64,000 nt of DNA from Naegleria gruberi (Eukaryota), in assembly GCA_000004985.1 (NCBI GenBank), contig GG738900.1, one strand, 5' to 3'. Positions 6,001 through 53,656 of this stretch are shown here, one piece after another (position 1 is the first letter of the stretch; each line of letters opens with the position of its first letter). The notes beneath the pieces were generated by a model. That model worked only from the letters and a program-made list of their open reading frames with translations. It was not told where the DNA came from and made no database searches. Both the position numbers and the translations under genes were made by a program.

Positions 6001-9000
6001 NNNNNNNNNNNNNNNNNNNNNNNNNNNNNNNNNNNNNNNNNNNNNNNNNNNNNNNNNNNNNNNNNNNNNNNNNNNNNNNNNNNNNNNNNNNNNNNNNNNN
6101 NNNNNNNNNNNNNNNNNNNNNNNNNNNNNNNNNNNNNNNNNNNNNNNNNNNNNNNNNNNNNNNNNNNNNNNNNNNNNNNNNNNNNNNNNNNNNNNNNNNN
6201 NNNNNNNNNNNNNNNNNNNNNNNNNNNNNNNNNNNNNNNNNNNNNNNNNNNNNNNNNNNNNNNNNNNNNNNNNNNNNNNNNNNNNNNNNNNNNNNNNNNN
6301 NNNNNNNNNNNNNNNNNNNNNNNNNNNNNNNNNNNNNNNNNNNNNNNNNNNNNNNNNNNNNNNNNNNNNNNNNNNNNNNNNNNNNNNNNNNNNNNNNNNN
6401 NNNNNNNNNNNNNNNNNNNNNNNNNNNNNNNNNNNNNNNNNNNNNNNNNNNNNNNNNNNNNNNNNNNNNNNNNNNNNNNNNNNNNNNNNNNNNNNNNNNN
6501 NNNNNNNNNNNNNNNNNNNNNNNNNNNNNNNNNNNNNNNNNNNNNNNNNNNNNNNNNNNNNNNNNNNNNNNNNNNNNNNNNNNNNNNNNNNNNNNNNNNN
6601 NNNNNNNNNNNNNNNNNNNNNNNNNNNNNNNNNNNNNNNNNNNNNNNNNNNNNNNNNNNNNNNNNNNNNNNNNNNNNNNNNNNNNNNNNNNNNNNNNNNN
6701 NNNNNNNNNNNNNNNNNNNNNNNNNNNNNNNNNNNNNNNNNNNNNNNNNNNNNNNNNNNNNNNNNNNNNNNNNNNNNNNNNNNNNNNNNNNNNNNNNNNN
6801 NNNNNNNNNNNNNNNNNNNNNNNNNNNNNNNNNNNNNNNNNNNNNNNNNNNNNNNNNNNNNNNNNNNNNNNNNNNNNNNNNNNNNNNNNNNNNNNNNNNN
6901 NNNNNNNNNNNNNNNNNNNNNNNNNNNNNNNNNNNNNNNNNNNNNNNNNNNNNNNNNNNNNNNNNNNNNNNNNNNNNNNNNNNNNNNNNNNNNNNNNNNN
7001 NNNNNNNNNNNNNNNNNNNNNNNNNNNNNNNNNNNNNNNNNNNNNNNNNNNNNNNNNNNNNNNNNNNNNNNNNNNNNNNNNNNNNNNNNNNNNNNNNNNN
7101 NNNNNNNNNNNNNNNNNNNNNNNNNNNNNNNNNNNNNNNNNNNNNNNNNNNNNNNNNNNNNNNNNNNNNNNNNNNNNNNNNNNNNNNNNNNNNNNNNNNN
7201 NNNNNNNNNNNNNNNNNNNNNNNNNNNNNNNNNNNNNNNNNNNNNNNNNNNNNNNNNNNNNNNNNNNNNNNNNNNNNNNNNNNNNNNNNNNNNNNNNNNN
7301 NNNNNNNNNNNNNNNNNNNNNNNNNNNNNNNNNNNNNNNNNNNNNNNNNNNNNNNNNNNNNNNNNNNNNNNNNNNNNNNNNNNNNNNNNNNNNNNNNNNN
7401 NNNNNNNNNNNNNNNNNNNNNNNNNNNNNNNNNNNNNNNNNNNNNNNNNNNNNNNNNNNNNNNNNNNNNNNNNNNNNNNNNNNNNNNNNNNNNNNNNNNN
7501 NNNNNNNNNNNNNNNNNNNNNNNNNNNNNNNNNNNNNNNNNNNNNNNNNNNNNNNNNNNNNNNNNNNNNNNNNNNNNNNNNNNNNNNNNNNNNNNNNNNN
7601 NNNNNNNNNNNNNNNNNNNNNNNNNNNNNNNNNNNNNNNNNNNNNNNNNNNNNNNNNNNNNNNNNNNNNNNNNNNNNNNNNNNNNNNNNNNNNNNNNNNN
7701 NNNNNNNNNNNNNNNNNNNNNNNNNNNNNNNNNNNNNNNNNNNNNNNNNNNNNNNNNNNNNNNNNNNNNNNNNNNNNNNNNNNNNNNNNNNNNNNNNNNN
7801 NNNNNNNNNNNNNNNNNNNNNNNNNNNNNNNNNNNNNNNNNNNNNNNNNNNNNNNNNNNNNNNNNNNNNNNNNNNNNNNNNNNNNNNNNNNNNNNNNNNN
7901 NNNNNNNNNNNNNNNNNNNNNNNNNNNNNNNNNNNNNNNNNNNNNNNNNNNNNNNNNNNNNNNNNNNNNNNNNNNNNNNNNNNNNNNNNNNNNNNNNNNN
8001 NNNNNNNNNNNNNNNNNNNNNNNNNNNNNNNNNNNNNNNNNNNNNNNNNNNNNNNNNNNNNNNNNNNNNNNNNNNNNNNNNNNNNNNNNNNNNNNNNNNN
8101 NNNNNNNNNNNNNNNNNNNNNNNNNNNNNNNNNNNNNNNNNNNNNNNNNNNNNNNNNNNNNNNNNNNNNNNNNNNNNNNNNNNNNNNNNNNNNNNNNNNN
8201 NNNNNNNNNNNNNNNNNNNNNNNNNNNNNNNNNNNNNNNNNNNNNNNNNNNNNNNNNNNNNNNNNNNNNNNNNNNNNNNNNNNNNNNNNNNNNNNNNNNN
8301 NNNNNNNNNNNNNNNNNNNNNNNNNNNNNNNNNNNNNNNNNNNNNNNNNNNNNNNNNNNNNNNNNNNNNNNNNNNNNNNNNNNNNNNNNNNNNNNNNNNN
8401 NNNNNNNNNNNNNNNNNNNNNNNNNNNNNNNNNNNNNNNNNNNNNNNNNNNNNNNNNNNNNNNNNNNNNNNNNNNNNNNNNNNNNNNNNNNNNNNNNNNN
8501 NNNNNNNNNNNNNNNNNNNNNNNNNNNNNNNNNNNNNNNNNNNNNNNNNNNNNNNNNNNNNNNNNNNNNNNNNNNNNNNNNNNNNNNNNNNNNNNNNNNN
8601 NNNNNNNNNNNNNNNNNNNNNNNNNNNNNNNNNNNNNNNNNNNNNNNNNNNNNNNNNNNNNNNNNNNNNNNNNNNNNNNNNNNNNNNNNNNNNNNNNNNN
8701 NNNNNNNNNNNNNNNNNNNNNNNNNNNNNNNNNNNNNNNNNNNNNNNNNNNNNNNNNNNNNNNNNNNNNNNNNNNNNNNNNNNNNNNNNNNNNNNNNNNN
8801 NNNNNNNNNNNNNNNNNNNNNNNNNNNNNNNNNNNNNNNNNNNNNNNNNNNNNNNNNNNNNNNNNNNNNNNNNNNNNNNNNNNNNNNNNNNNNNNNNNNN
8901 NNNNNNNNNNNNNNNNNNNNNNNNNNNNNNNNNNNNNNNNNNNNNNNNNNNNNNNNNNNNNNNNNNNNNNNNNNNNNNNNNNNNNNNNNNNNNNNNNNNN

Positions 9001-11789
9001 NNNNNNNNNNNNNNNNNNNNNNNNNNNNNNNNNNNNNNNNNNNNNNNNNNNNNNNNNNNNNNNNNNNNNNNNNNNNNNNNNNNNNNNNNNNNNNNNNNNN
9101 NNNNNNNNNNNNNNNNNNNNNNNNNNNNNNNNNNNNNNNNNNNNNNNNNNNNNNNNNNNNNNNNNNNNNNNNNNNNNNNNNNNNNNNNNNNNNNNNNNNN
9201 NNNNNNNNNNNNNNNNNNNNNNNNNNNNNNNNNNNCACCATAATAGTTTTCGGTACAATTACAAAGATCTGGACGGTAACAAATACCACGTCTATCCTTA
9301 GTACATACGCCAGTAAGTCCATTACAGATTGGAATTTCACAGTTAAAGCCTCCATATCCAAATGTACTATTACATGTGCAGTTATTATAAAAATCACAAG
9401 AACCACGTCCACTACAGACATCTGGAGAGTTGTATTCAATATCGGCGCAAGTTGTCCATTCACACCAAGTTCCATTATAATTAGGATAACAGCTACATGT
9501 ATCCTTTGCAATACAAGCGCCATGACCATTGCTACAAACTGATGATTCAGTACCTAGAGTACCGTTACACATGGCAATAGAACAATCTTGGCCGTATTGA
9601 TCTGGTAAACACAAGCAAGTATTGTTACCTATACAGTAACCATTATTTGAGCATCCATCTTCAACAATTGATTTGGAATTGAAACAGAATGTAAGTAAAC
9701 ATTGCTCATTAATGTATGGTTCGTATCCGTTGAATGTGATTGGAGGAGTGAATGTTACATCGAATAATAGCATCTGTGTACCACCCATAAACCATAAAGC
9801 GCCCTGAATAGTATCATAAATTTCAATTTGATGGTATGGAGCCATTCCTACCACTGTACCGTGAACATTTCCAGAGAAAAAATTACCATTTCTACCATAG
9901 TCCCAAGTCAACCAAAAGACATTTCTATAGGAGGCACATAACAGATAGTAAAAAACGGCATTATAATAATTGACGTATGGAGCCTTAAAAACAACAGGCT
10001 CAAGACCATGGATAATAAAAATATGATCCTTAATTGTGATACCATTAGGGAAACAATACACACCACCATGCTTGATAACAGTAATATTCTGTAATTCATC
10101 TTGACTATTAATGGTATGTGTACAATCCATGTACAATAATTCCATGGATTTCTTTTCCATTTCTTGAATAATCAACTCTGTCATCGGATCATTTTGAGGT
10201 TTTGAAATGACAACATCATTTCCACTTGGTTCGTACATGACTGGAGTTGTTGGTGAGTAGGCATGAGAAACCTGAATGTCAGGTAAGGCGAAACTTGCCT
10301 GTAATTCCTTTTTAGAGTTTCTGGCAATCATAATAGGTTTGGAACTGATAAGTTTGTAGCCAGCAAATATATCTACAGCACAAGCCTCACCAATGAAACC
10401 AGTTTGGCAAGTACAATTGTTGTATGAAATACAAGTACCGTGTCCAGAACAAACTAAAGGAGAATTAGAATCATCACTGAAACATTGTGTCAATTCACAA
10501 TTAGAGCCAAAATAATTATCTACACAAGAGCAAGAGTCAGGAGCAGTACAGTTACCTAGTGAGGTACAAACAGAAGCATTAGAGAAATGCACACCAGAAC
10601 AATTCCAATGTTGGCACTTATCACCATAATATCCATACAGACAATTACAGTTATCAGAACCAATACAGTCACCGTTACCAGAGCAAACAGTTGAATCGTT
10701 TGATCCTATACCATAACACCAATGAACGGTGAAAATCTCTTCATCACAATTGTTACCAGAGTATCCATCAGTGCACAAGCATTTGTCTAAGGCTGTGCAA
10801 TTTCCTTGGCCATTACATACCAGTGAGGAGTTTGACAATACACCAAAGCATTGAGTAACTTGGCAATCATTTCCAAAATAATTGGAACTACATTGACAAT
10901 TATTTAAATCTACACAAGCGCCATTACCAGAGCAAACAGTTGAATCGTTTGATCCTATACCATAACACCAATGAACGGTGAAAATCTCTTCATCACAATT
11001 GTTACCAGAGTATCCATCAGTGCACGAGCATTTATCTAAGGCTGTGCAATTTCCTTGGCCATTACATACCAGTGAGGAGTTTGACAATACACCAAAGCAT
11101 TGGGTAACTTGGCAATCATTTCCAAAATAATTGGAACTACATTGGCAATTATTTAAATCTACACAAGCGCCATTACCAGAGCAAACAGTTGAATCGTTTG
11201 ATCCTATACCATAACACCAATGAACGGTGAAAATCTCTTCATCACAATTGTTACCAGAGTATCCATCAGTGCACAAGCATTTGTCTAAGGCTGTGCAATT
11301 TCCTTGGCTACTACATACCAGTGAGGAGTTTGACAATACACCAAAGCATTGAGTAACTTGGCAATCATCTCCAAAATAATTGGAACTACATTGACAATTA
11401 TTTAAATCTACACAAGCGCCATTACCAGAGCAAACTCTAGAGTCATTACTTAGAAGTTCATTACATTCAAAAACAGAACATAAAGGACCATAATAACCAC
11501 TATCACACAAACAATTATCTGGTGATTGGCAACCATGTCCTGACAATATTAACGGATTGATTTGTGGATATTCCAAGCATTCTATATATTCACAATTGTT
11601 GCCTGAATATCCTGTAAGGCAACTACAAGTCTCATCAGCTATACAAGTTCCGTTACCTGAGCAAACCAATAGATCGGTTGAATCCAACGAATTACAGGTA
11701 AAGGCTTGTACACACTTAGTTGAAAAAACTACTAAGAGCGTTACTAACACAACACACTTAATAAATAATGAGGTGTTGATTCCGCTCAT
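1..11789 (-). CDS. Giant secreted EGF-like (tenascin-type) repeat protein. ATG at 11789 with a signal peptide; the 3' end continues off the window. The ORF is interrupted by the assembly gap. Architecture is SP - EGF modules - module X - EGF modules - [gap] - module X - at least 35 EGF modules.
   Basis: Minus-strand translation from 11789 gives MSGINTSLFIKCVVLVTLLVVFSTKCVQA, then CxSGxGxCxxxxxCxCxxGYYGxxCE repeats of ~32 aa. The same frame is continuous from 4289 down to 1 (translated by hand, no stops). The frame at 11789 and at 4289 is identical (7500 nt apart). The ORF track lacks it because the frame never terminates inside the window. Confidence 0.8.
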   Translation of the reverse strand, partial: MSGINTSLFIKCVVLVTLLVVFSTKCVQAFTCNSLDSTDLLVCSGNGTCIADETCSCLTGYSGNNCEYIECLEYPQINPLILSGHGCQSPDNCLCDSGYYGPLCSVFECNELLSNDSRVCSGNGACVDLNNCQCSSNYFGDDCQVTQCFGVLSNSSLVCSSQGNCTALDKCLCTDGYSGNNCDEEIFTVHWCYGIGSNDSTVCSGNGACVDLNNCQCSSNYFGNDCQVTQCFGVLSNSSLVCNGQGNCTALDKCSCTDGYSGNNCDEEIFTVHWCYGIGSNDSTVCSGNGACVDLNNCQCSSNYFGNDCQVTQCFGVLSNSSLVCNGQGNCTALDKCLCTDGYSGNNCDEEIFTVHWCYGIGSNDSTVCSGNGDCIGSDNCNCLYGYYGDKCQHWNCSGVHFSNASVCTSLGNCTAPDSCSCVDNYFGSNCELTQCFSDDSNSPLVCSGHGTCISYNNCTCQTGFIGEACAVDIFAGYKLISSKPIMIARNSKKELQASFALPDIQVSHAYSPTTPVMYEPSGNDVVISKPQNDPMTELIIQEMEKKSMELLYMDCTHTINSQDELQNITVIKHGGVYCFPNGITIKDHIFIIHGLEPVVFKAPYVNYYNAVFYYLLCASYRNVFWLTWDYGRNGNFFSGNVHGTVVGMAPYHQIEIYDTIQGALWFMGGTQMLLFDVTFTPPITFNGYEPYINEQCLLTFCFNSKSIVEDGCSNNGYCIGNNTCLCLPDQYGQDCSIAMCNGTLGTESSVCSNGHGACIAKDTCSCYPNYNGTWCEWTTCADIEYNSPDVCSGRGSCDFYNNCTCNSTFGYGGFNCEIPICNGLTGVCTKDRRGICYRPDLCNCTENYYGXXXXXXXXXXXXXXXXXXXXXXXXXXXXXXXXXXXXXXXXXXXXXXXXXXXXXXXXXXXXXXXXXXXXXXXXXXXXXXXXXXXXXXXXXXXXXXXXXXXXXXXXXXXXXXXXXXXXXXXXXXXXXXXXXXXXXXXXXXXXXXXXXXXXXXXXXXXXXXXXXXXXXXXXXXXXXXXXXXXXXXXXXXXXXXXXXXXXXXXXXXXXXXXXXXXXXXXXXXXXXXXXXXXXXXXXXXXXXXXXXXXXXXXXXXXXXXXXXXXXXXXXXXXXXXXXXXXXXXXXXXXXXXXXXXXXXXXXXXXXXXXXXXXXXXXXXXXXXXXXXXXXXXXXXXXXXXXXXXXXXXXXXXXXXXXXXXXXXXXXXXXXXXXXXXXXXXXXXXXXXXXXXXXXXXXXXXXXXXXXXXXXXXXXXXXXXXXXXXXXXXXXXXXXXXXXXXXXXXXXXXXXXXXXXXXXXXXXXXXXXXXXXXXXXXXXXXXXXXXXXXXXXXXXXXXXXXXXXXXXXXXXXXXXXXXXXXXXXXXXXXXXXXXXXXXXXXXXXXXXXXXXXXXXXXXXXXXXXXXXXXXXXXXXXXXXXXXXXXXXXXXXXXXXXXXXXXXXXXXXXXXXXXXXXXXXXXXXXXXXXXXXXXXXXXXXXXXXXXXXXXXXXXXXXXXXXXXXXXXXXXXXXXXXXXXXXXXXXXXXXXXXXXXXXXXXXXXXXXXXXXXXXXXXXXXXXXXXXXXXXXXXXXXXXXXXXXXXXXXXXXXXXXXXXXXXXXXXXXXXXXXXXXXXXXXXXXXXXXXXXXXXXXXXXXXXXXXXXXXXXXXXXXXXXXXXXXXXXXXXXXXXXXXXXXXXXXXXXXXXXXXXXXXXXXXXXXXXXXXXXXXXXXXXXXXXXXXXXXXXXXXXXXXXXXXXXXXXXXXXXXXXXXXXXXXXXXXXXXXXXXXXXXXXXXXXXXXXXXXXXXXXXXXXXXXXXXXXXXXXXXXXXXXXXXXXXXXXXXXXXXXXXXXXXXXXXXXXXXXXXXXXXXXXXXXXXXXXXXXXXXXXXXXXXXXXXXXXXXXXXXXXXXXXXXXXXXXXXXXXXXXXXXXXXXXXXXXXXXXXXXXXXXXXXXXXXXXXXXXXXXXXXXXXXXXXXXXXXXXXXXXXXXXXXXXXXXXXXXXXXXXXXXXXXXXXXXXXXXXXXXXXXXXXXXXXXXXXXXXXXXXXXXXXXXXXXXXXXXXXXXXXXXXXXXXXXXXXXXXXXXXXXXXXXXXXXXXXXXXXXXXXXXXXXXXXXXXXXXXXXXXXXXXXXXXXXXXXXXXXXXXXXXXXXXXXXXXXXXXXXXXXXXXXXXXXXXXXXXXXXXXXXXXXXXXXXXXXXXXXXXXXXXXXXXXXXXXXXXXXXXXXXXXXXXXXXXXXXXXXXXXXXXXXXXXXXXXXXXXXXXXXXXXXXXXXXXXXXXXXXXXXXXXXXXXXXXXXXXXXXXXXXXXXXXXXXXXXXXXXXXXXXXXXXXXXXXXXXXXXXXXXXXXXXXXXXXXXXXXXXXXXXXXXXXXXXXXXXXXXXXXXXXXXXXXXXXXXXXXXXXXXXXXXXXXXXXXXXXXXXXXXXXXXXXXXXXXXXXXXXXXXXXXXXXXXXXXXXXXXXXXXXXXXXXXXXXXXXXXXXXXXXXXXXXXXXXXXXXXXXXXXXXXXXLFLRGGYAGAECESDIFACYKMISNKPALLAKNSLANSVLTASIAIPSQVITPPTFLFPDPVYPYVGNGSYGITYTYDEFGKNLVDEVGKRVDELNTLPCDFIINNPDSLGKLIIVEFGGVYCLRDSWLIEGHKFVIVGTEPVVFRAPYIHYYGAEFKYEKCASYRNVFWSTYYFGNTVSDWILSTTLHGNVFVNHVHGTVIAKYGQEFWVAGKIHGAVWVHSEELGQVTLQEASFDAPITCDPKEPYVNSECLDIFSCYLIDHHSNLTCAGKGQCIDYNKCICKEDSYGDDCSVSICYGVYGNETYVCSGHGNCAGRDKCVCDFGYYGQMCQFTTCNGINNTSPLACNKRGVCEFYNNCTCNLTLGYGGPDCEIPICNGLVGLCSGAGRGDCISPNNCSCADGYYGKWCEITTCYGVESTNSSVCGEKGNCTAFDKCSCLEGYYGHTCQDFECFGISRLSNETCSGKGSCVNYDTCVCQPEFYGINCEVTSCNDIYSNETKSCSGHGKCVGLDTCNCTQNYYGPWCELTTCFGIEATNHSTVCSGRGSCSRFDVCSCLDGYYGPRCEFTSCDSISSNSTEVCNGVGTCIDLDICVCPNTYSGDFCEITSCFGVPTNIPSVCSGRGFCTHLDICNCDETLGYEGSNCEIPICNGIPAVNSTVCSSHGSCTGADHCSCDTGYFGSNCENTTCGGVSSTSHQVCSRHGFCATYNNCTCNLGYSGSICSVFSCRGTMNTEKAVCSGRGNCSDIDTCVCLSDAYGDDCSISKCNGTFSNFTNIVCSSRGHCIGTDSCNCTEGYYGKFCERTSCYGVDMANKSVCSGRGLCSDYNQCNCSEGYYGDNCQYHTCFGLNNTESKVCSGHGLCSRTDECKCASNYFGLNCSVTICNAVLSNETMVCSGRGECLSPNQCSCREGYYGDYCQVTNCYSIASNQSQLVCSGRGQCSDMNTCICDPDAYGPDCSLYKCNGALSNESIVCSGRGQCIETDHCNCTENNYGQFCQVTSCFGIPSNQTDLTCSGKGVCAQFNSCQCFENSFGSDCSEFKCFEILNVNLTACHSRGSCMSTNNCSCFLNYLGDECELTSCNSILSNDTNVCSGKGQCADFDSCACDEGYYGDNCEYFNCNGIEHLNSSVCSSRGHCTSYEKCECDEGYFGNNCQFFTCNSVNHTESTVCSSRGECSSYNNCTCRDNYFGNDCELTTCGSIQSNDSKVCSSKGSCMDYNICNCSAGYYGSECENFNCFGVSKFSNSTCSGRGDCIDGNTCVCMANMFGPMCEVTICDGILSNDSSVCSGHGSCVDVNDCDCDTNYYGSTCEVTTCNGVSSNTSSVCSGFGKCASFDRCQCEEHYNGNDCQYFTCNGVNHTETTVCSSRGECSSFNNCSCRDNYFGDTCELTTCGSIQSNNSKVCTSRGNCSDFNTCNCSSINYFGT
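3505..4240 (-). repeat. Non-EGF conserved module X, copy 1 (~235 aa), embedded between EGF runs
   Basis: Translation gives DIFACYKMISNKPALLAKNS...GGVYCLRDSWLIEGHKFVIVGTEPVVFRAPYIHYYGAEFKYEKCASYRNVFW...HGTVIA.... This is alignable to copy 2 through shared motifs DIFAxYKxISxKP, GGVYC, EPVVFxAPY, CASYRNVFW and HGTV. Confidence 0.7.
4291..9235. other. Assembly gap (4,945 N)
   Basis: An uninterrupted N run. ORFs 4223..9529 and 4258..9258 in the track are artefacts of translating N as X. Confidence 0.99.
9700..10385 (-). repeat. Non-EGF conserved module X, copy 2
   Basis: Translation gives DIFAGYKLISSKPIMIARNS...HGGVYCFPNGITIKDHIFIIHGLEPVVFKAPYVNYYNAVFYYLLCASYRNVFW...HGTVVG.... It is a diverged paralogue of copy 1 (roughly 40-45% identity by eye). 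Confidence 0.7.
10670..11440 (-). repeat. Near-identical tandem triplication of a 249-bp (83-aa, EGF-module) unit inside the giant gene
   Basis: The string 'agcaaacagttgaatcgtttgatcctataccataacaccaatgaacggtgaaaatctcttcatcacaattgttaccagagtatccatcagtgcac...' recurs at 10682, 10931 and 11180. The period is exactly 249 nt with only a few substitutions. A partial fourth copy starts at 11429. Confidence 0.9.
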
Positions 11790-39621: not shown

Positions 39622-39740
39622 GGCTACGGCCATATCACGATTCATGCACCTCATCCCGTCCGATTTGAGAAGTTAAGTATCGTCGAGCCACATCAGTACT
39701 GAGGTTGGAGACAACTTGGGAACCTGTGGTGCTGTAGTCT
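39622..39740 (+). rRNA. 5S ribosomal RNA gene (dispersed copy)
   Basis: GGCTACGGCCATATCACG…CATCCCGTCCGATTTGAGAAGTTAAGT…CAGTACTGAGGTTGGAGACAACTTGGGAACCTGTGGTGCTGTAGTC matches the universal 5S helices and loop C/E. It is very close to Dictyostelium 5S as recalled from memory. A T-run follows. Confidence 0.9.
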
Positions 39741-40000: not shown

Positions 40001-40074
40001 GCAGCGATAGATCAGTTGGTTAGATCGTAAGCCTAACACGCTTAAGGTCGCGGGTTCAAGCCCCGCTCGCTGTA
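40001..40074 (+). tRNA. tRNA-Val (anticodon AAC)
   Basis: Cloverleaf folded by hand: acceptor GCAGCGA/TCGCTGT (G1-U72), D-arm GATC…GATC, anticodon stem TAAGC/GCTTA with loop CTAACAC, T-arm GCGGG-TTCAAGC-CCCGC, discriminator A. It is followed by TTTT at 40078. Confidence 0.9.
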
Positions 40075-43869: not shown

Positions 43870-45327
43870 TTAATTCTTATTGTTGTGATTAATTAATGGA
43901 TACTTTTCCTTCTCTTCCTCATCTTGTTGATTATCCAAATTATTAGTATTATTGCTGGTGATACCTTCATTGTCATTGTAAACAATATCATCACTCTGAT
44001 GATAAATAATTGGTTCAATAACTTCTGAAGAATCATTAATTGAAACATTCGAATGGGGTTCGCCTCCTTTCGTTTGATTCTTCTCCTCACTAACCTCATG
44101 TCTCAAGTGATTCCAGGGTAAAAACTTGGGATCCATCTCATAAAGTGGCTTTCGAGCGAATACTTCATATCCAATATTTCCCAATGTAATAATAATCAAT
44201 GAAACAATAATCCACCAAGTTGGTTGACTAGAAAATTGTCCAACTAATGGTTTAATCCAAAAGCAAACAGCAGTCAATGGATACAACAAGGCATTCAAAT
44301 TGGCCAAAACATTGGATCCAAACTTTTCAATCAGATAAGATCCACTCACGAAATAAACATAGTATCCAGCCACGAATATACATGTCCACAATGTGGCTTG
44401 CCAACCACCACAACATGAAGACACATCATAATTCCCAAAAAAGCATTGGAATGCTTCTCCCTGTTGCTCAAATACCTGAGTGGCAGAACATGTGGTTGCA
44501 TTCATGGAACACATGGAGAGTGGAGTGTGAGCTGGAACATTACATGAGCCAAAGTTTGGAACCATGGTCATGAACATCCATGCAGCATAGACAATCAATG
44601 AGAATAGATTGTAATAGACCAAGACGATGAAGGTAGGTGCCTTGTAGGAATCATAGGCCACCTCTTGATAGATAGTTTCAAAAGCTGTTGGAATGGCAGA
44701 ACAAATGGAAATGATGAGCCAGAAGGCAGAGTTTGAGAAGGTGGTTTCTGAGCCAGTTCCATTCATATAGGAGTAGATGGAACCAAAGAGGAGTCCGGAG
44801 AGAATGAGCAGGAAACAGCCAATTTGACCCAAATCATATTTCTTTCTCAAAATCAATGGATACATGATCCATGTGAGAGGAGCAGAAACTTGAGTCAAAA
44901 TGGCAGTCAATTCTGGATCAACAAATGGAATGGCACTCTGTGCGAAAATTCCATTGAAAGCAGTAAAGAAACCAAGTGCCAAAACACAAATGATCAACTT
45001 CTTGTTATAGTACAAACACCATCTTTCCTTGATTTGCTTGAATGAATGTTTCTGAACAACAATGGAAAGGAAAATTTCAGTTACAATAAAGAAGGAGGTG
45101 TACATGAAGGTAGTTCCATACAATAAGAAACCAGAATTGTACAATGGCATGTAGTAGCCCATAATTTGCACTCCCAAATTATTCATCATTCCTCCCATCA
45201 AGTAAATGATGACCAAAACGATGAATAAGAGATTTCTCTTTGAGAACATGGAGTTTGCCATTTGGGAGAGTCGTTGTCTAAGACCTCGACCAGTTGCTGA
45301 ATTGTTGTTGAAAAGTTTGATTTGCAT
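43870..45327 (-). CDS. Multi-pass membrane protein, putative transporter (possibly CRT-like/DMT superfamily), ~485 aa; probable ATG at 45327 (the track ORF starts from an upstream GTG at 45573)
   Basis: About 10 predicted hydrophobic helices, a Cys-rich loop (CSMNATTCSATQ…CFFGNYDVSSCCGGW) and an acidic N/D-rich tail. The family assignment is tentative. Confidence 0.45.
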   Translation of the reverse strand: MQIKLFNNNSATGRGLRQRLSQMANSMFSKRNLLFIVLVIIYLMGGMMNNLGVQIMGYYMPLYNSGFLLYGTTFMYTSFFIVTEIFLSIVVQKHSFKQIKERWCLYYNKKLIICVLALGFFTAFNGIFAQSAIPFVDPELTAILTQVSAPLTWIMYPLILRKKYDLGQIGCFLLILSGLLFGSIYSYMNGTGSETTFSNSAFWLIISICSAIPTAFETIYQEVAYDSYKAPTFIVLVYYNLFSLIVYAAWMFMTMVPNFGSCNVPAHTPLSMCSMNATTCSATQVFEQQGEAFQCFFGNYDVSSCCGGWQATLWTCIFVAGYYVYFVSGSYLIEKFGSNVLANLNALLYPLTAVCFWIKPLVGQFSSQPTWWIIVSLIIITLGNIGYEVFARKPLYEMDPKFLPWNHLRHEVSEEKNQTKGGEPHSNVSINDSSEVIEPIIYHQSDDIVYNDNEGITSNNTNNLDNQQDEEEKEKYPLINHNNKN

Positions 45328-45714
45328 GTTGAGTGAATATGAGCTTGTTGTTGCTATTAAGTAAAAATCTTGTGTTGATATGATAAAGAAAAATGGTTGT
45401 GATCTCTGGGATGACAGATAATAATGTGTGCTTGTGTTTGAGAATAATATAATTGAGAATACTGCTAACTTGAACAAATTCTTGAGTGAGATTAAGACTG
45501 TAGAGTTGTAAAGTGTGTGTGAAGGGCCTTTAATAGAAAATATCCAGACGCAAGAAAGTGAATATTGAAACACAACTAATAATTAACTAGTTTTTTTCTT
45601 TTAATTCAAGTGTTAATGCTGCTGCTGTTGTGCAATGATAAATATAGAAAACTTGAGAAAATCTTTCAAGAAACTTGCCTGATGATTTGCTGCACAGAAT
45701 GTTTGTGTCATCTC

Positions 45715-45982
45715 GCTTATTAAACTCTAGTTTACAATGACACTTGTGTCCGAATGAAAATATTCCAATTCCTGTACGAACAACTCCTCTAGCTCCATTT
45801 GTTTCGTCTTCCATAATAGTTCAATTGACCTTGTTCTGTTTGTGAAAGAAAGCGAAAATCTTGGGTCTCTTGAAAAACTGTTTTTTCGCGTGTTTGTCAG
45901 TTGTGATTTATTTGGTTGGATTTCTGTTTTGGTTTTTTACAGCTCCCAAGATTTTCGCTTTTGTAAACTCGAGTTTAATGAA
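45715..45982. repeat. Nested inverted repeats in the divergent intergenic region: outer 22/24-bp imperfect IR (45715-45738 vs 45961-45982) and inner 17-bp perfect IR (45849-45865 vs 45945-45961)
   Basis: Reverse complement of cccaagattttcgcttt is aaagcgaaaatcttggg (perfect match). Reverse complement of cgcttattaaactctagtttacaa is ttgtaaactagagtttaataagcg, against the observed ttgtaaactcgagtttaatgaa. Confidence 0.7.
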
Positions 45983-46163
45983 ATCCCCGGAAGACAAGGC
46001 TGGAAATGCACTATAGACTCTTCATGTACAGTTTGTATATTACAATATTAATCTACAGTATTAACTATTTAACCGTACATAATTAAATATTAAATACTAC
46101 ACATTCAATATTAAATTAATCAAAAAAAAATAATAAAAAAAATATTCAAATTTAAAAAAAAAT

Positions 46164-47756
46164 ATGCCAAACATACCGCCACCTTCCGGGCTCTATCGTC
46201 AGGACAATTCTTCTTCTTACAATAACAATAGAAATAACAATAATTATTCTTCATCATCATCGTCATCAACGGCATCGCGAGGAATTTCAGCCTTTCAACG
46301 ACAACATAACGCCGATCAACCTTCATCATCATACAATAATAATAATAATAGAAGAGGTGTTGGTGATAGAGGAGAGAGAGGAGATAGAGGTGGTGAAAGA
46401 GGATCTTATCAATCCTATGATTCGCATAAGAGAAATTATAATGAATATAATGATGATCATCATCAACATGATTCGTATTCTTCATCTTCGTATAAAAAGA
46501 ATAAGATGGATCATCATTATTCGTCATCTTCATATGAAAATCAATCATCACAATCATATAACAAACCAAATTCTAATGGATTTTCACTAGGCAATTCAAA
46601 TGTATCATTTCCGACTATTTTACCAAGTTTTTTGAGTAAGGATGCTATCAATGCTTTAATGGCTCGTATTCGTCTTAATGAAATTAATGAACAAGGAGTT
46701 CAAAATAATGGATTTTCCTCTCTAGAACAATATGAAAAACACAAATTATATACAGAAGTTCAAAAACTAGTTGCACTCGCAAAACTAATTAATCCTCTCT
46801 TTTCCTTTGAAAATCATTTTGTTTATGTGAAACAATTCATCTCAGAGTGTGAAATGTCAATGGCTGATTCATTGGATCAAGATGGAACTGATGGAAAACA
46901 AATTAATAGAAAGATTTACATTCCAGTAGATGAATATCCTGACTATAATTTCATTGGTTTGATTATCGGACCTGGAGGTTTAACACAAAAGAAACTTGAA
47001 AAGGAGAGTGGAGCCAAGATTGCTGTTCGTGGTAAAGGAAGTGTAAAACCAGGTAAAATACCAACAAAATCATTTGCAGATGAAGAAAACTTGCACGTTC
47101 TCATCACTGCTGATGATGAAGATTCTGTGGAAAAGGCAGCTGAAATGATCAAGAGATTATTGATTCCTGTTGAAGAAGGAAGCAATGAACTCAAGAAGGA
47201 ACAACTTAGAGAATTAGCAAGACAACGAGGTTTTACCATTGAAGGTATGAGTGATGCTGAACTAGGTGTTGTGGCAGAAGAAGGTGGTGAATCTGCTTTC
47301 CTTGCCAAACTTCAATCATATGGACTAAATCAACACATGCCAGATCAACCAACAATACCTGGTGTGACATCAAATGTTGAAATTCCAGGTATTACTGACA
47401 ATAAGAAATATAACAAGAATATGGAAAGTGCAATGGATAAACTTAAAAGAGATTTATTGGGTGGAGAGGATAATGAAAATAAGCAAGAAGAAGAAAATGA
47501 GGAAATTGTGATAGAAGCTCCAAAACTTACCACTCCTTCATCTGCTCCATTTGATGATGCCTATCAACAAACCTATGACTTGTACTATGATTATTATAAG
47601 CAATTCTTTGCAAGACAAGTTGAAACATTCCAAAAGTTTGAAGATATACTGAGAGGATATGATGGTCAGCTCCCTAAAAATGATATGAATACAGCTTTCC
47701 AAGTTGTTGTGATGGCAGTTAATGACATTGTTCCTCCAATTCCAGGAGAAAAATAA
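46164..47756 (+). CDS. SF1: Splicing factor 1 / branchpoint-binding-protein-like STAR-KH domain protein, 530 aa
   Basis: KIYIPVDEYPDYNFIGLIIGPGGLTQKKLEKESGAKIAVRGKGSVK…ENLHVLITADD is the canonical SF1/BBP KH-QUA2 core. The N-terminus is low-complexity N/S/R-rich. Confidence 0.75.
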   Translation: MPNIPPPSGLYRQDNSSSYNNNRNNNNYSSSSSSSTASRGISAFQRQHNADQPSSSYNNNNNRRGVGDRGERGDRGGERGSYQSYDSHKRNYNEYNDDHHQHDSYSSSSYKKNKMDHHYSSSSYENQSSQSYNKPNSNGFSLGNSNVSFPTILPSFLSKDAINALMARIRLNEINEQGVQNNGFSSLEQYEKHKLYTEVQKLVALAKLINPLFSFENHFVYVKQFISECEMSMADSLDQDGTDGKQINRKIYIPVDEYPDYNFIGLIIGPGGLTQKKLEKESGAKIAVRGKGSVKPGKIPTKSFADEENLHVLITADDEDSVEKAAEMIKRLLIPVEEGSNELKKEQLRELARQRGFTIEGMSDAELGVVAEEGGESAFLAKLQSYGLNQHMPDQPTIPGVTSNVEIPGITDNKKYNKNMESAMDKLKRDLLGGEDNENKQEEENEEIVIEAPKLTTPSSAPFDDAYQQTYDLYYDYYKQFFARQVETFQKFEDILRGYDGQLPKNDMNTAFQVVVMAVNDIVPPIPGEK

Positions 47757-47817
47757 TAATAATTATTTTTTTAAATTTTTTATTTTTATTTCCAAAATTA
47801 CAAAATTATTAGAGAAT

Positions 47818-48957
47818 TTACTTTTCTTCTTCTTCAATATCTTCAACAATGGTAACAGGTTCAGGTAAAGAAGTTGTCAATTTAGGATCAATATTTTCAA
47901 CAGCCTTCATGATAGTTTCAACATTTTCAGCAGCTTCTGTAGAAAAGAGAACTCTAGCCCACATTTCTCGTCCTTCTGGTGAGAAGGCTTCTTCCAAAGA
48001 TTCTAAACTAGCATAAAGAGTATGCATATCATTAGCAGCGGATTCAGTCATGTATTTAGCAAATGTTCCCTTTCCGTTTGCTTGTTCATATTCTTCAACT
48101 TGCTTTTCAAGTTGCTTTAAAGCAATCAATTCATGCATAAATGGACCAATTGGTTCAGCATCAGGGTCCAAACGAGAATCATATGTCAAACTATGGATAC
48201 TTTGGAAAGTTGTACCTTCTGGATCAATGATTCTATCAATAATTCTTGATGAGTCATCAGACATTGTTGATGTCATATCCTTTACATCGCTCTTCTTAGC
48301 TTCGGAAGCTGGAAGACTATTAGCCAAATCAGTGAAAGCAGAAGAGAAGGCCACTCGGGAATTAATTTCATCTCTTTGGGCACTTTCCAAATCATCCTTC
48401 TTGATTAAATACTTCTTATACTCTTGAATATCCTTTTGGTAATCCATATCAATTTTTTGCATTTGTTGAAGAACCTTCTTGAACATGTATTGGTTTTCAT
48501 CATCCTCTTGCAATTGTGTTAAATCTTGTTTGATTTCGCTTCTTTTAGTAGCGTATTGTGTAGGTTTAGAGAAGGTTTCAGCCTTTGGTAAATTATCATG
48601 TGAAATTTGATATAAACTCTTCTCATAGTATTTGTGAATGTGGTTATGTTTACGAGCATCCTCAATAGCACCCAAAATTTGATTTTGTAATTTCTTAATA
48701 TCAATTTGGTCCTTTCCAATCATTGGTACTTCGCTTTTATCGAGTTGTAACTTTATATCGTATTTTCCAGAGTAAAAAGCAGTTGCGGCTCCATTTCTAC
48801 CAACAGCTTCAAGAGAAGACAATTTGCTATAATAGCTAAATTGGTTCCAAACTTTAGATGGAAATCCCTTCATTTGCTCTGGGATGTTCAACATTTTGGC
48901 CACCAAATTCTTTGCCTTTCTTCCGGTTCTAATGTATGACTGTGGGACAACGTTCAT
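47818..48957 (-). CDS. Hypothetical protein, 379 aa
   Basis: Continuous ORF with ATG at 48957 and an acidic C-terminus. No family recognised by eye. Confidence 0.5.
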   Translation of the reverse strand: MNVVPQSYIRTGRKAKNLVAKMLNIPEQMKGFPSKVWNQFSYYSKLSSLEAVGRNGAATAFYSGKYDIKLQLDKSEVPMIGKDQIDIKKLQNQILGAIEDARKHNHIHKYYEKSLYQISHDNLPKAETFSKPTQYATKRSEIKQDLTQLQEDDENQYMFKKVLQQMQKIDMDYQKDIQEYKKYLIKKDDLESAQRDEINSRVAFSSAFTDLANSLPASEAKKSDVKDMTSTMSDDSSRIIDRIIDPEGTTFQSIHSLTYDSRLDPDAEPIGPFMHELIALKQLEKQVEEYEQANGKGTFAKYMTESAANDMHTLYASLESLEEAFSPEGREMWARVLFSTEAAENVETIMKAVENIDPKLTTSLPEPVTIVEDIEEEEK

Positions 48958-49339
48958 TTTTGCAATTTTTTTAAAAAAATTTCATCAAGAATTTTTAATT
49001 TTTAAATTTTCAAAAAATTATGATTGTTGGTGAAAGGGATGAAGAACAGATCTAGAACAACACTAGTAATTGGTTGAGATCATGATAACGAGTGGAGGAT
49101 ATTAAGTGATGGAAATGTAGTAGAGATTTTATTTTCTTGTTGTGTTATCTTGATGTTGTACAAATGTTTTTTAAAAACTTCAGCAAGGCTTGCCAGTAAA
49201 TTAACAAATGAAGTATAATAGGTTTAAATTCATGAAGAGTGAGGCAACGTTTCGGGAGATGAATTGAATTTGATTACGAATAACATGATAGTATTTTCAA
49301 CCACGTTGGCCGAAGGAGTTTATCACAGATGAAATTGGG

Positions 49340-49618
49340 AAAGCAATCCTTCAGAACATTTGCAGAATAATAAAGAATTTATTCTTGAACATGTGAGGAG
49401 AGATGGAATGTTTCTTGTTAGATTTACCTCTAAGGAATTACAAGGAAACAGCGAAGTAGTTGTTGAAAGTGTTAAACAAAGAGGAATTTCATTACAATTT
49501 GCCTCAGCAGAGTTGAGAAATAACAAGTAAATTGTTAAAATTGCTATTTCACAAGCTCTGGAATATGTAAGTGATTCCATTAGAAATGATGAGGAGATTA
49601 TATTGAAAGCAGAGTAAT
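49340..49618 (+). pseudogene. DUF4116-repeat gene fragment (pseudogene)
   Basis: + frame gives …NNKEFILEHVRRDGMFLVRFTSKELQGNSEVVVESVKQRGISLQFASAELRNNK*IVKIAISQALEYVSDSIRNDEEIILKAE*. This is about 3 DUF4116 repeat units with an in-frame TAA and an upstream frameshift. There is no ATG and no splice sites to rescue it. Confidence 0.6.
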
Positions 49619-50020
49619 TAGAAAATTTTCTGAAATTGACTGAACATTAGTCCAATAAGTATTTGATAATGGAAAGTGTTGAGTTTGCACCACAACATTG
49701 AGGACAAATTGAGCAAAGTAATGGGAACTTCTCACACAGGTTGAAGAACCTTTTACAAATTTCTTGCTCGCCTTAAAACAATAATTTTGAGTCTAAAAAT
49801 AAAAAATTTCCAATTTCCGAAACAATTCCGTGCAAATGAGGATGAACTCGTTTCTCTCTTTTCCAAAGGTTACACTCAATTATTTGTTTTTTTGCAACTG
49901 AGGACAAATCTATTTTTATATAAATAGCTCAAACTAAGCAAAATATTCTCAACAACAATTTGAAAAAAAACAATCAAAATACTAACTGTGTATTCTGTTT
50001 ACTTACTAAATAATAAGAAA

Positions 50021-51271
50021 ATGAGCTTTTTGTTTAATCCTTTGGTTTTTGAATCAACTCCAACTAGAAATAACATTCCTGTTTATGCCCAACAAGGAAC
50101 CATTCCAAGATATTTGAACCAACAAGTTTATGTTCCTACTCAAGTCACTTATCAAGAACCATCTCTTCAATTCAAAGTTTTTGCTTTCGACAAGTTGAAT
50201 GGTAATAGTAGATTGAATTTTGGTGAGGCATCAAATGTTTACAGATTCGAATTATTTCAAAATAGATCCCTTCAAGGATTTTTGAATGTTTTGAAGAGTA
50301 ATGGTATTTCTGCTCAATCTCACAAGTTTTATTATGTTGATGATGAACAAGATTTGGTTGTCTTGTCTACTGAGTATGATTTCAAGTACATGTTAAAGAT
50401 TTTAAAGGGAAATGCTATTAAGATTGTTTGTGAAAAGATTCCACAACCACAACCTGTATGCCAAAGATCTCATCCAAGAACTAATTGTGCAGCTGGATTT
50501 AGAAATCTTCCATTCTTTATGAAACCAATTTTTGAAAAGGAAGAAGAAAAAGAAGAGCATTTAATTGAACAAGCTTTGGATTCAGTTTTTTCTGGAATTT
50601 TTGAAAAGAAACAAGAAAGACCTCAACCAAATAACTCACAATTCAATACTCAAAGAGTGAGAACCATTAGATTGTCTGAGTTGTTGAAGAATGCTCAAAA
50701 GGAAAAGCAAGAAAAGAAGGAAGAAAAGCAAACAAGATCATTTGAGGATTATCTTGCTGAATTGTTTGGAAAGAAACTTGCCGAAAGAAGAAATCAAGAA
50801 GGAGAGCAAGCCAAGAAGGAAGAGTCAAAGGTTGAAGAAAAGAGTGTTCCACAACAACAACAAGAATCAACTGTTGAAGAAAAGAAAGAAGAGCTGAAGG
50901 AAGAATCTCAACCTGAAGAAAAGAAGGACACACCATTCTTGTCCACTTCACAAATTATTTCAAATTATTTAATTGAAGATGAGGAAGAAGATATTGTTAC
51001 AGATGAAGATGATTACGACTCTGATGATCAATCATCAGTTGCTTCTGAACAAGTCAACCAAACTGAAGTTCAATATCCAACTATTTCAGCAGAAGAAGAA
51101 TCATCAAATACAATTCCAGAAACTTCCAATGAAGAACAACCATCCTACGAAAATGAATTGAAATTACTCTCAGATATGGGATTCACCAATACAAGTGAAA
51201 ATCTCACATTATTGAACAAGTACTCTGGTGATGTTCAAAGAACAGTCTCTGAATTAGTTTACTACTATTAA
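50021..51271 (+). CDS. PB1- and UBA-domain protein (p62/NBR1-like), ~416 aa; ATG at 50021 (the track ORF starts at an upstream GTG)
   Basis: N-terminal PB1-like fold (LQFKVFAFDK…YYVDDEQDLVVLSTEYDFKYMLK), a K/E-rich linker, and a C-terminal UBA (YENELKLLSDMGFTNTSENLTLLNKYSGDVQRTVSELV). Confidence 0.65.
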   Translation: MSFLFNPLVFESTPTRNNIPVYAQQGTIPRYLNQQVYVPTQVTYQEPSLQFKVFAFDKLNGNSRLNFGEASNVYRFELFQNRSLQGFLNVLKSNGISAQSHKFYYVDDEQDLVVLSTEYDFKYMLKILKGNAIKIVCEKIPQPQPVCQRSHPRTNCAAGFRNLPFFMKPIFEKEEEKEEHLIEQALDSVFSGIFEKKQERPQPNNSQFNTQRVRTIRLSELLKNAQKEKQEKKEEKQTRSFEDYLAELFGKKLAERRNQEGEQAKKEESKVEEKSVPQQQQESTVEEKKEELKEESQPEEKKDTPFLSTSQIISNYLIEDEEEDIVTDEDDYDSDDQSSVASEQVNQTEVQYPTISAEEESSNTIPETSNEEQPSYENELKLLSDMGFTNTSENLTLLNKYSGDVQRTVSELVYYY

Positions 51272-51397
51272 TCTCAATAACCTTAAACATGCACTCTGTA
51301 AATATGTAAATAATAAATGAAAAAGCTCAGAAAGTCATTGAAATCCAATATCTATTATTTTTGGCGCCAAATATTTAATCAATTTTTTAATTAAAAA

Positions 51398-53656
51398 ATG
51401 TACAACGCTCAAGGTGGTGGAAATCATTCAACCGCCTCATCCACACCATCAACACAACAACAACCAACATCGGGTGGTGGTATTGGTGGACAACAGCAGC
51501 CTCTCTATTATGGATCGCCTTCTTTTAGTGCTGTGTCCTCTGGTAACCAGGGAATGACTTCACCAAGTAAAGGAATTTCATCGAATAGCACTGCCTTCTA
51601 TCCAAAGTTTTTCAATCCGTCCTCCTCTTCTCCCAATATGAATAATACCAACATCACCAATAATAATAATAGCAGTGTTGTTGCTAATAATAATATCGCT
51701 GCTAATAACAATAATAATACTACTATTCAATCATCACCTAAATTATCTTCATCATCATTTGTTTTTCAACCTAAGGGACAGAATTATAATGAAAATAGTG
51801 GACAACAAATTAATTTATCTTCCAATTCAACAACACCATCCTTTACTGCTGTACATGTAAGTGTAAATATGTGATCGATAATATTATAATGGCGATCAAC
51901 AAACAATAATATTTTGATTAACTTTGCTCTTTAACAATCAAATCTACTTTCATCACAATAATAACAGCAACAAAATCAACAGACATTCAATAACAAAAAG
52001 CTCCAATCCAAGTTACAATATGATCTCTACCAACAACATCTCCAACATAAAAGAAATACTCCTGTAACATCATCACCACATTATCATCATCATAATAATG
52101 TTAATGATAATAACAATAACGGATCATATATTTTCACACCTGCTGACATGTCAACCGATCCAAAATCTGCTTATCGTGGTATTCACAACTTTTTTGTTAA
52201 TGATTCACTGAGGAACATTTTGTTAAATAGAGGACTCATGAATTATGTACAAAGTTTGGATGATATTGATGAAGAAACTATGAATCAAGGAGATATTGCT
52301 GAGAGAATTTCACAAATTCCAAGATATATCGATCAATATCACTCATTCTATCCATTAGATCAAAACTTTTGGAGCGACAATAGTATCCAAGAAATTGATT
52401 TTGCCTTTGGTCAATCATTTAGAGTAATAGACTCTGCTAGTGCTTCCCCATGTTGTTTGAGACGTATTAGTGAACATCAAATTCTTTCAATTGAACAAGC
52501 TTTGACTAGTGCCGATCCATGGTTCAAGATCAAACATCCAAATATTGTCTCTTTGAAACAAGTCATCTCTACTGATCAATTCGGAAATGATAATGATTTA
52601 TTGTTTATTTATGACTATAGTCCTGGAGCAGAAACTTTGGAAGAACACTTCTTTATTGAGACCTCTAGAGCTCCTGCAGAATCTACATTGTGGAGTCTTA
52701 TTTGCCAATGTCTCAGTGCTCTAAGAGAAATTCACTCTAAGAATTTGGCCTACAGAACCTTTTACACCAACAAGATTATTATTCTTCCAGGGTTAACAAA
52801 CAAGAGATTCAAGTTGAATTGTTCTGGTATGCTTGATATTTTGGAAAATACTGAAGAGGCTGATATTGCTGCACAACAAAAGGAAGATTTTAAACATTTT
52901 GGTATTTTACTTGTAGAATTAATGTGCACATTTAGAGAATTGAGCGATGCTCCACATGCTTTGTCAGTTTTGAACAATAGTGAGGTAGGTTTTTTATTTT
53001 AAAATTTCTAATTAATTTAAATTATTTATATTAATATATTAATTTATAATTAATAATATTCTTATTTACTATTATATTAAATAATTTGAAATTACAGAGT
53101 ATTTCTTGTAAATACTCTACAGAACTTGTTGACTTTGTAAAGACCCTCCTCCAAGATGACATTGACTTGAACAAACTCATCTCAAACATTGCTTTGAGAT
53201 ATGTCGATGAATTGTCTACCATGTACAATTATGTAGATACTATTGAAAATGAATTAGCTAAGGAATTAGAAAATGGACGTTTGTTTAGATTGTTGGTCAA
53301 ATTGAACTTTGTTGCCCAACACGAAGAGTAAGTATTTCTCACATGTTTCCATTATTTAATTTACATTTTCACATAACAGCTTTGAATTTAGCACCAAAAA
53401 CAAGCAAGGAGTAACAGATAGACAAATGCTCAAACTCTTCTGTGATTATTTATTCGTTCAAGTCTCAGATACCAATCAATGCATTCTTGATTTTGGACAT
53501 ATTGTTGAAACTTTGAACAAACTAGATGCTGGAACCAATGAAAAGGTACTACTTATGAGCAGAGATGAACAATCGCTCATCGTAGTGACCTACAAGGATT
53601 TGAAGAATTCCATCAAGACTCAATTCGCCAATCTCCTTCGTAAAAATAAAGTATAA
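51398..53656 (+). CDS. PAN3: PAN3 (PAN2-PAN3 deadenylase regulatory subunit, pseudokinase), 4 exons: join(51398..51856, 51968..52984, 53098..53327, 53380|53392..53656), ~660 aa
   Basis: Pseudokinase core HPNIVSLKQVISTDQFGNDNDLLFIYDYSPGAETLEEHF…WSLICQCLSALREIHSKNLAYRTFYTNKIIILPG, then a coiled-coil and a C-terminal knob. The introns are GTAAGT/GTAGGT. The last acceptor is ambiguous; both candidates are in frame. Confidence 0.7.

Follow-up and report, generated by a model that had tools for sequence, protein, structure and literature searches.

Long palindromes in DNA are unstable, and they are often stabilised by asymmetric changes. Transposons of the piggyBac group duplicate TTAA at the target site, and have termini of the form 5'-CCC...GGG-3'. 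Their terminal and sub-terminal repeats are nested, with spacers of unequal length. For Kolobok elements, a TTAA duplication and termini of the form 5'-RR...YY-3' have been described (PMC9587614). DNA transposons of both of these TTAA-specific groups are present in Naegleria, piggyBac having been reported in N. lovaniensis and Kolobok in Naegleria (PMC6125883; PMC9587614), and the repeat content of N. gruberi is 5.1% (PMC6125883). Perfect reverse-complement repeats and hairpins that form within a few hundred base pairs have also been documented as products of replication template switching (PMC5453318; PMC8794818). The template-switch mutations described by Loytynoja & Goldman 2017 (PMC5453318) and by Monttinen & Loytynoja 2022 (PMC8794818) are near-perfect reverse-complement copies of a neighbouring template. 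They have sharp borders, give Watson-Crick stems in a single step, and do not need transposition machinery.

Here we describe a nested inverted repeat of Naegleria gruberi that likewise has the form of a near-perfect reverse-complement copy of neighbouring sequence, with sharp borders and Watson-Crick stems. It lies in the 836-bp spacer between two divergent genes, on a stretch of 64,000 nt of contig GG738900.1 that is referred to as the window. Like MITEs and foldback elements, including those derived from piggyBac and Kolobok, it is about 260 bp long and non-coding, has a terminal inverted repeat of 19 nt and TTAA edges, and is situated beside gene starts. Like the palindromic sites bound by dimeric factors in bidirectional promoters, it has two 14-bp palindromes, the half-site of which recurs in the orthologous promoters of two congeners. 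The account that we tentatively favour, giving it somewhat less than an even chance, is that of a lineage-specific, single-locus, non-mobile reverse-complement duplication in the divergent promoter region shared by the two genes.

Anatomy of the nested repeats

The features of the locus and of its two neighbours are as follows.

43870–45327, minus strand: NAEGRDRAFT_52481, CRT-like transporter (485 aa), with 391 nt between its ATG and arm A
45587–45814, minus strand: 75-aa open reading frame, which starts within the 111-nt segment and reads through arm A; not annotated
45719–45737: outer left arm A, ATTAAACTCTAGTTTACAA, with a 14-bp imperfect palindrome, TAAACTCTAGTTTA, at 45721–45734 and TTAA at 45720–45723
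45738–45848: segment of 111 nt between A and B, on the left side only; it was either inserted here or lost from the right copy
45849–45878: inner left arm B, composed of AAAGCGAAAATCTTGGG at 45849–45865 and then a less well matched extension of 13 nt (7/13, mainly AAAAAC)
45866–45944: spacer between the perfect inner arms, 79 nt and T/G-rich; 53 nt when the extended arms are counted
45945–45979: right block B'A', composed of CCCAAGATTTTCGCTTT and TGTAAACTCGAGTTTAAT, with the palindrome TAAACTCGAGTTTA at 45964–45977 and TTAA at 45975–45978
46164–47756, plus strand: NAEGRDRAFT_52482, SF1 / branchpoint-bridging protein (530 aa), with 184 nt between its ATG and arm A'

When the region was run through a repeat finder, the inner inverted repeat was recovered as a perfect 17-mer (45849–45865 against 45945–45961), in agreement with the sequence-only reading from which this work started. 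On extension it reached 30 nt at 80% complementarity. The same reading had described an outer repeat of 22 bp with two mismatches, beginning at 45715. The outer repeat is real, but this start was one base out of register: the 22-nt pair is 45716–45737 / 45961–45982 and contains three mismatches, and the core of the repeat is 19 nt long with 18/19 complementary positions (45719–45737 against TTGTAAACTCGAGTTTAAT, 45961–45979). It had also been stated that the inner right arm abuts the outer right arm. This is exactly the case, T45961 being common to both arms.

On the right side the two arms, inner and outer, run together without interruption as a block of 35 nt (45945–45979). This block is the reverse complement, at 34 of its 35 positions, of the left arms A and B, which are now split by 111 nt. 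The right outer arm holds a perfect 14-bp palindrome (14/14), and its left counterpart is matched at 12/14. TTAA forms the outermost repeat bases on both sides. Inside TTAA the ends read ACTCTAG...CTCGAGT, i.e., 5'-AC...GT-3'. Both stems are purely Watson-Crick, with neither G-U pairs nor compensatory changes.

Similarity stops sharply where the blocks end, and the templates of the right block are 80–260 nt away. A gapped alignment of the flanks beyond the blocks gave a score of 61 against a shuffle maximum of 60, which is not significant. No priming microhomology was seen beside the inner arm; the 17-mer is followed by five mismatches, and then by AAAAAC/GTTTTT. The 111-nt segment shows no target duplication and a junction microhomology of 1 nt (T), and it has no significant similarity to other parts of the window. 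It was also considered as an intron or as a mobile insert, and both were rejected, the segment being without GT...AG borders, a duplication, or further copies in the window.

It may be noted that a third copy of TTTTCGC occurs at 45883–45889, in the spacer of the inner arms, and that its context (GTTTTTTCGCGTGTTTGT) is loosely like that in the right block (GATTTTCGCTTTTGT). There are six copies of TTTTCGC in the whole window, three of them within this element. Neither TTTTCGC nor CCCAAGA gave any pattern as a general promoter motif across the window.

The 75-aa open reading frame was absent from the protein collection and had no Pfam match. Its codon score of 0.17 was intermediate, real genes scoring 0.37 and off-frame sequence 0.01. 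The HMMER matches were to bacterial surface proteins only, and were artefacts of summation over repeats. The open reading frame is probably not a gene, and it was treated as non-coding. In one of these matches, a phmmer E-value of 5.6e-19 arose from a 30-residue stretch of 35% identity, the 12 near-identical repeats of the target adding up (P0134, P0135). Short queries run against repeat proteins can give inflated phmmer scores, and call for caution.

An arrangement of this kind might be put down to short repeats, unrelated to each other, that happen to lie together in intergenic DNA; the region is AT-rich indeed (31% GC), and the window has many short palindromes. However, apart from the inner repeat the window has no perfect inverted repeat of at least 15 nt with a spacer of at most 300 nt, and the inner repeat ranks top among all inverted repeats of the window. 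When the 59 kb of non-N sequence were simulated 150 times under a first-order Markov model, a perfect inverted repeat of at least 17 nt was found in 0.7% of the simulations, and a 19-nt inverted repeat with at most one mismatch in 2%. That the two should abut exactly is much rarer still than either repeat alone, and with the abutment the joint probability is well below 1e-4. Uniqueness, rank and simulations effectively refute a chance arrangement, and we regard its probability as negligible.

Perfect palindromes of at least 14 bp number 13 in the window, as compared with 6.2 ± 2.2 in the simulations, and are found in coding as well as non-coding DNA. This roughly twofold excess would fit a mutation process that actively forms palindromes. 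In the same window, an assembly gap (4,945 N, 4291–9235) sets the composition profiles to zero along its length. Near the window start, a 12-bp palindrome (ACCACATGTGGT) occurs twice, at 99–110 and 684–695 (585 nt apart), and a perfect 14-nt inverted repeat (897–910 / 1154–1167) lies near these palindromes, which suggests an internally repetitive gene or a repeat at the window start.

Gene context and comparison with other Naegleria

The SF1 open reading frame was 100% identical to N. gruberi XP_002672104 (NAEGRDRAFT_52482), and the minus-strand neighbour (ATG 45327) was 100% identical to N. gruberi XP_002672159 (NAEGRDRAFT_52481). The latter matched the Pfam CRT-like family with E = 1.9e-20. 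Both flanking genes had been called correctly from the letters of the DNA. As the locus tags 52481 and 52482 are consecutive, nothing is annotated in the 836-bp spacer. The length of the spacer is typical, other divergent pairs in the window being separated by ~650 to 1060 bp.

The SF1 loci of N. fowleri (L001–L003), N. lovaniensis (L004) and an uncultured Naegleria (L078) were compared with that of N. gruberi. The nearest SF1 relative had 57–58% protein identity. The order in which SF1 is followed by a minus-strand gene of ~380 aa and then by a Pan3-like kinase was kept in four Naegleria. The gene upstream of SF1 is a DUF5765 gene in N. fowleri, an unassigned 195-aa gene in N. lovaniensis, and the CRT-like gene in N. 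gruberi. Since this upstream neighbour differs between the species, the N. gruberi spacer is a synteny breakpoint. The N. fowleri CRT-like orthologue adjoins a tubulin gene (L077).

No comparable repeat was found in the regions upstream of the SF1 and CRT-like orthologues of N. fowleri, N. lovaniensis and the uncultured Naegleria (L001–L004, L076–L078), and when the N. gruberi spacer was aligned with these upstream regions no alignment rose above the shuffled controls. Conservation across related species had been proposed as a check on the element; in these three Naegleria the outcome was negative, with no homologous sequence. A tblastn match between the region upstream of N. fowleri SF1 and 45908–45985 (E = 0.004) was one among ~100 queries; it failed on inspection of the DNA and was rejected.

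Two further differences between the species were seen in the neighbouring genes. The region from SF1 to Pan3 (46164–53641) is ~3 kb longer in N. gruberi (48957–52010), with a 416-aa open reading frame at 50021–51271. The N. fowleri CRT-like orthologue has an apparent intron of ~160 nt (L077, ~2582–2745; gtgagt...ccag) after ...FNGVFAQ, and the N. gruberi gene is uninterrupted there (window ~44700–44800); this looks like a presence/absence difference of an intron.

Mobile-element, RNA and regulatory readings

The size of the element and its terminal inverted repeats had been compared with those of a MITE or foldback element. Such an element would be a non-autonomous DNA transposon of ~251–261 bp with the outer repeat as its terminal inverted repeats. 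The inner repeat would then be sub-terminal, or the remnant of a ~48-bp terminal repeat interrupted by 111 nt on the left. The fit in size (261 bp) and in the terminal repeat (18/19 over 19 nt) stands. TTAA is present at both outer edges, the location is intergenic and near gene 5' ends, and credible coding capacity is lacking, the 75-aa open reading frame having neither a Pfam match nor a real homologue. The TTAA-specific transposons known from Naegleria, the repeat content of the genome, and the position of the element at a synteny break with other Naegleria also agree with an insertion. The statement that there is no target-site duplication holds only for non-palindromic ones, as no non-palindromic direct repeat flanks the terminal repeats. 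The outermost repeat bases at both edges could conceal a palindromic duplication of TTAA (or TA), but TTAA or the inner TA is indistinguishable from the repeat itself, i.e., from its plain extension.

Several points speak against a MITE, which we consider possible but doubtful. The termini inside TTAA, AC...GT, follow neither the piggyBac nor the Kolobok pattern. Self-palindromic terminal repeats are unusual, and inner and outer repeats that abut on one side only are not the usual layout of a MITE. No second copy of the arms or of the body was found in the 59-kb readable window (arm patterns with at most three mismatches; blastn with word size 7), in ~60 kb of other Naegleria DNA, or in the collection scans; the search of the window covered 59 kb of the 41-Mb N. 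gruberi genome, and a low-copy MITE family would be missed by it. When metagenomes were scanned with the outer arm, 65 loci were obtained; each was a bare seed match of 18–20 nt with neither a partner arm nor an extension, and their number is a chance number. Viral scans, and a scan of prokaryote genomes with the junction 22-mer, gave nothing relevant. In the literature we found nothing specific on MITEs or hairpin RNAs of Naegleria.

A structured ncRNA had been offered as another possibility, on the strength of a CCCAAGA box at 45944 that was compared with the dictyostelid promoter element DUSE. The box begins at 45945, and the inner right arm simply opens with these 7 nt. What is shared with the DUSE-dependent ncRNA genes of dictyostelids (Class I RNAs, snRNAs), where DUSE lies about 60 nt ahead of an ncRNA of a known class, is only a loose CCCA-containing heptamer; the organism is another one, the heptamer lies within a repeat arm, and there is no ncRNA family match downstream. 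A dictyostelid ncRNA promoter of the DUSE type was rejected on the identity of the host, which is Naegleria gruberi (Heterolobosea, Discoba) by the 100% identity of the flanking proteins. When 44800–46800 was searched against Rfam 15 at E ≤ 10, only a spurious CRISPR-DR54 match (17 bits, E = 5.3) fell in the element. Rfam at the gathering threshold, together with ARAGORN, gave nothing in the element, the window having only 5S rRNA and tRNA elsewhere. These are a 5S rRNA (39622–39740, plus strand, 98.6 bits) and a tRNA-Val(AAC) (40001–40074, plus strand), 260 nt apart. The pair sits in another divergent intergenic region, between open reading frames ending at 39441 (minus strand) and starting at 40325 (plus strand).

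A young hairpin RNA gene, be it a miRNA-like/hpRNA precursor or a structured UTR element with its 17-bp stem processed by Naegleria RNAi, would be an RNA reading free of DUSE. Template switching has been proposed as an origin of new hairpin RNAs (PMC8794818; 10.1101/2023.04.19.537475). Folding, which had been suggested as a check, did give a stable hairpin: for the 131-nt fold the values were –36.8 kcal/mol and z = –4.6 (plus strand) and –28.6 kcal/mol and z = –4.5 (minus strand), and for the whole 281 nt z was –4.9. However, the DNA fold was equally extreme (z = –4.7), and such z-scores come with any inverted repeat. The stem lacks the G-U pairs and bulges that are seen in selected stems, and the loop is long (79 nt). 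There is no Rfam match, no homologues were found in N. fowleri, N. lovaniensis and the uncultured Naegleria from which covariation could be read, and an argument from a DUSE promoter does not hold for Naegleria. A hairpin RNA gene is, in our estimate, very unlikely. Pure Watson-Crick stems with no G-U pairs are what is expected from copying at the DNA level. The capacity to fold into a hairpin or a cruciform is a consequence of the origin of the element, and there is no sign so far of a selected RNA or of a mobile element.

The possibility of a bidirectional regulatory palindrome had been raised as well, and weak support was obtained for the outer arms only. These would be putative cis-regulatory sites, two 14-bp palindromes (TAAACTC|GAGTTTA) 243 bp apart and bound by a dimeric factor, which would regulate the CRT-like gene, or perhaps both divergent genes. 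On this view the inner repeat is either a further site or incidental. Both outer arms are palindromic (14/14 on the right, 12/14 on the left), and from the frequency observed in the window the chance of a perfect 14-bp palindrome in a given 19-mer is ~1e-3. In the uncultured Naegleria (L076), TAAACTC is found 51 nt upstream of the CRT-like ATG, inside a palindrome (ATTGTAAATTTAAACTCACAAT). N. fowleri (L077) has two copies, as GGAGTTTAC, which lie 177 and 197 nt ahead of the CRT-like ATG. These are three matches in 906 nt, where 0.05–0.2 would be expected (P = 1.5e-5 to 1.4e-3 before correction for the choice of motif). No TAAACTC was found upstream of any SF1 orthologue, nor in 27 kb of further DNA from N. 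fowleri and N. lovaniensis.

It may be noted that the N. fowleri copies form a direct repeat upstream of the CRT-like gene, GGAGTTTAC-N11-GGAGTTTAC, at L077 1869–1897. The palindrome of the uncultured Naegleria is 22 nt long and lies 40–60 nt before the CRT-like ATG (L076 270–291).

When the motif was fixed beforehand and the promoters of four distant CRT-like homologues were examined, there was a single match, at –586, roughly as many as would be expected. The signal within Naegleria is marginal once it is corrected for ~30 candidate 7-mers, and 15 of the 7-mers of the N. gruberi spacer recur in both orthologous promoters. The TAAACTC lead, a weak one, holds within the genus only, and marginally so after correction for motif choice. 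The motif is unenriched in the non-coding DNA of the window. In N. gruberi the sites lie 391–650 nt away from the CRT-like ATG; in the other Naegleria this distance is 51–197 nt. The match of 18/19, which includes non-palindromic flanks, together with the adjoining perfect 17-mer, exceeds what a binding site needs and points to duplication; the copying of flanks and 17-mer together with the site sets the locus apart from ordinary dimeric-factor sites. We regard a regulatory explanation of the outer arms as unlikely. A combined version, in which the outer arms are an operator-like element of several Naegleria CRT-like promoters that was duplicated here by template switching, appears to us quite improbable.

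A proposed local copying event and its significance

The right side of the element is contiguous and the left side is split, and the two agree at 34/35 positions with one gap; one copy plus one indel accounts for this better than independent repeats or conventional terminal inverted repeats do. This asymmetry points to local reverse-complement copying, which was absent from the explanations offered before. One-sided contiguity, sharp borders, near-perfect identity and the lack of relatives together favour a local copying event with a 111-nt indel. Among the marks of a template switch, a nearby reverse-complement template, near-perfect identity (34/35) and sharp borders were found at this locus.

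The history that needs the fewest steps has two. In the first, a single copying event at the DNA level would yield the inverted copy. The route might be replication template switching, snap-back synthesis, which would give a perfect hairpin stem in one step, or an ordinary inverted duplication. In the second, a 111-nt indel would turn the palindrome asymmetric. A single four-point switch copies one contiguous template, and the model thus requires the extra 111-nt indel or a second switch; two template switches in succession would be an alternative history. In this the locus differs from the template-switch mutations described so far, since two templates are involved that are now 111 nt apart, and its 35 nt are at the long end of the described events.

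What is shown is the anatomy, its departure from randomness, the lack of detectable relatives, and the organism with its gene context; how the copy was made, in which order the steps came, and its neutrality are inferred. The duplication itself may well be neutral. The palindromic outer arms, and the recurrence of TAAACTC in the CRT-like promoters of two congeners, hint at a function rather than a neutral scar. Functional readings are compatible with either origin, a duplication or a MITE.

As it stands, the element is a real and probably neutral hairpin-forming duplication in a promoter region. Duplications of such kinds arise in many genomes, and by itself this one matters little. Comparable structures elsewhere are products of replication template switching or decayed foldback insertions. 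Should it be a true member of a Naegleria MITE family, that family would be previously undescribed, and would be of help in annotating the repeats of this genome, which make up 5% of it. Expression of the hairpin, if it occurs, would make the locus a case of de novo hairpin RNA birth. If the operator and template-switch reading is true, the locus would be a caught example of switching that multiplies a regulatory site or gives birth to a hairpin RNA. A TAAACTC palindrome that is a true Naegleria promoter element would be useful in a lineage where transcriptional control is little known and transgenic tools are still emerging, and the operator-like element would then be among the first sequence-defined promoter elements in Heterolobosea.
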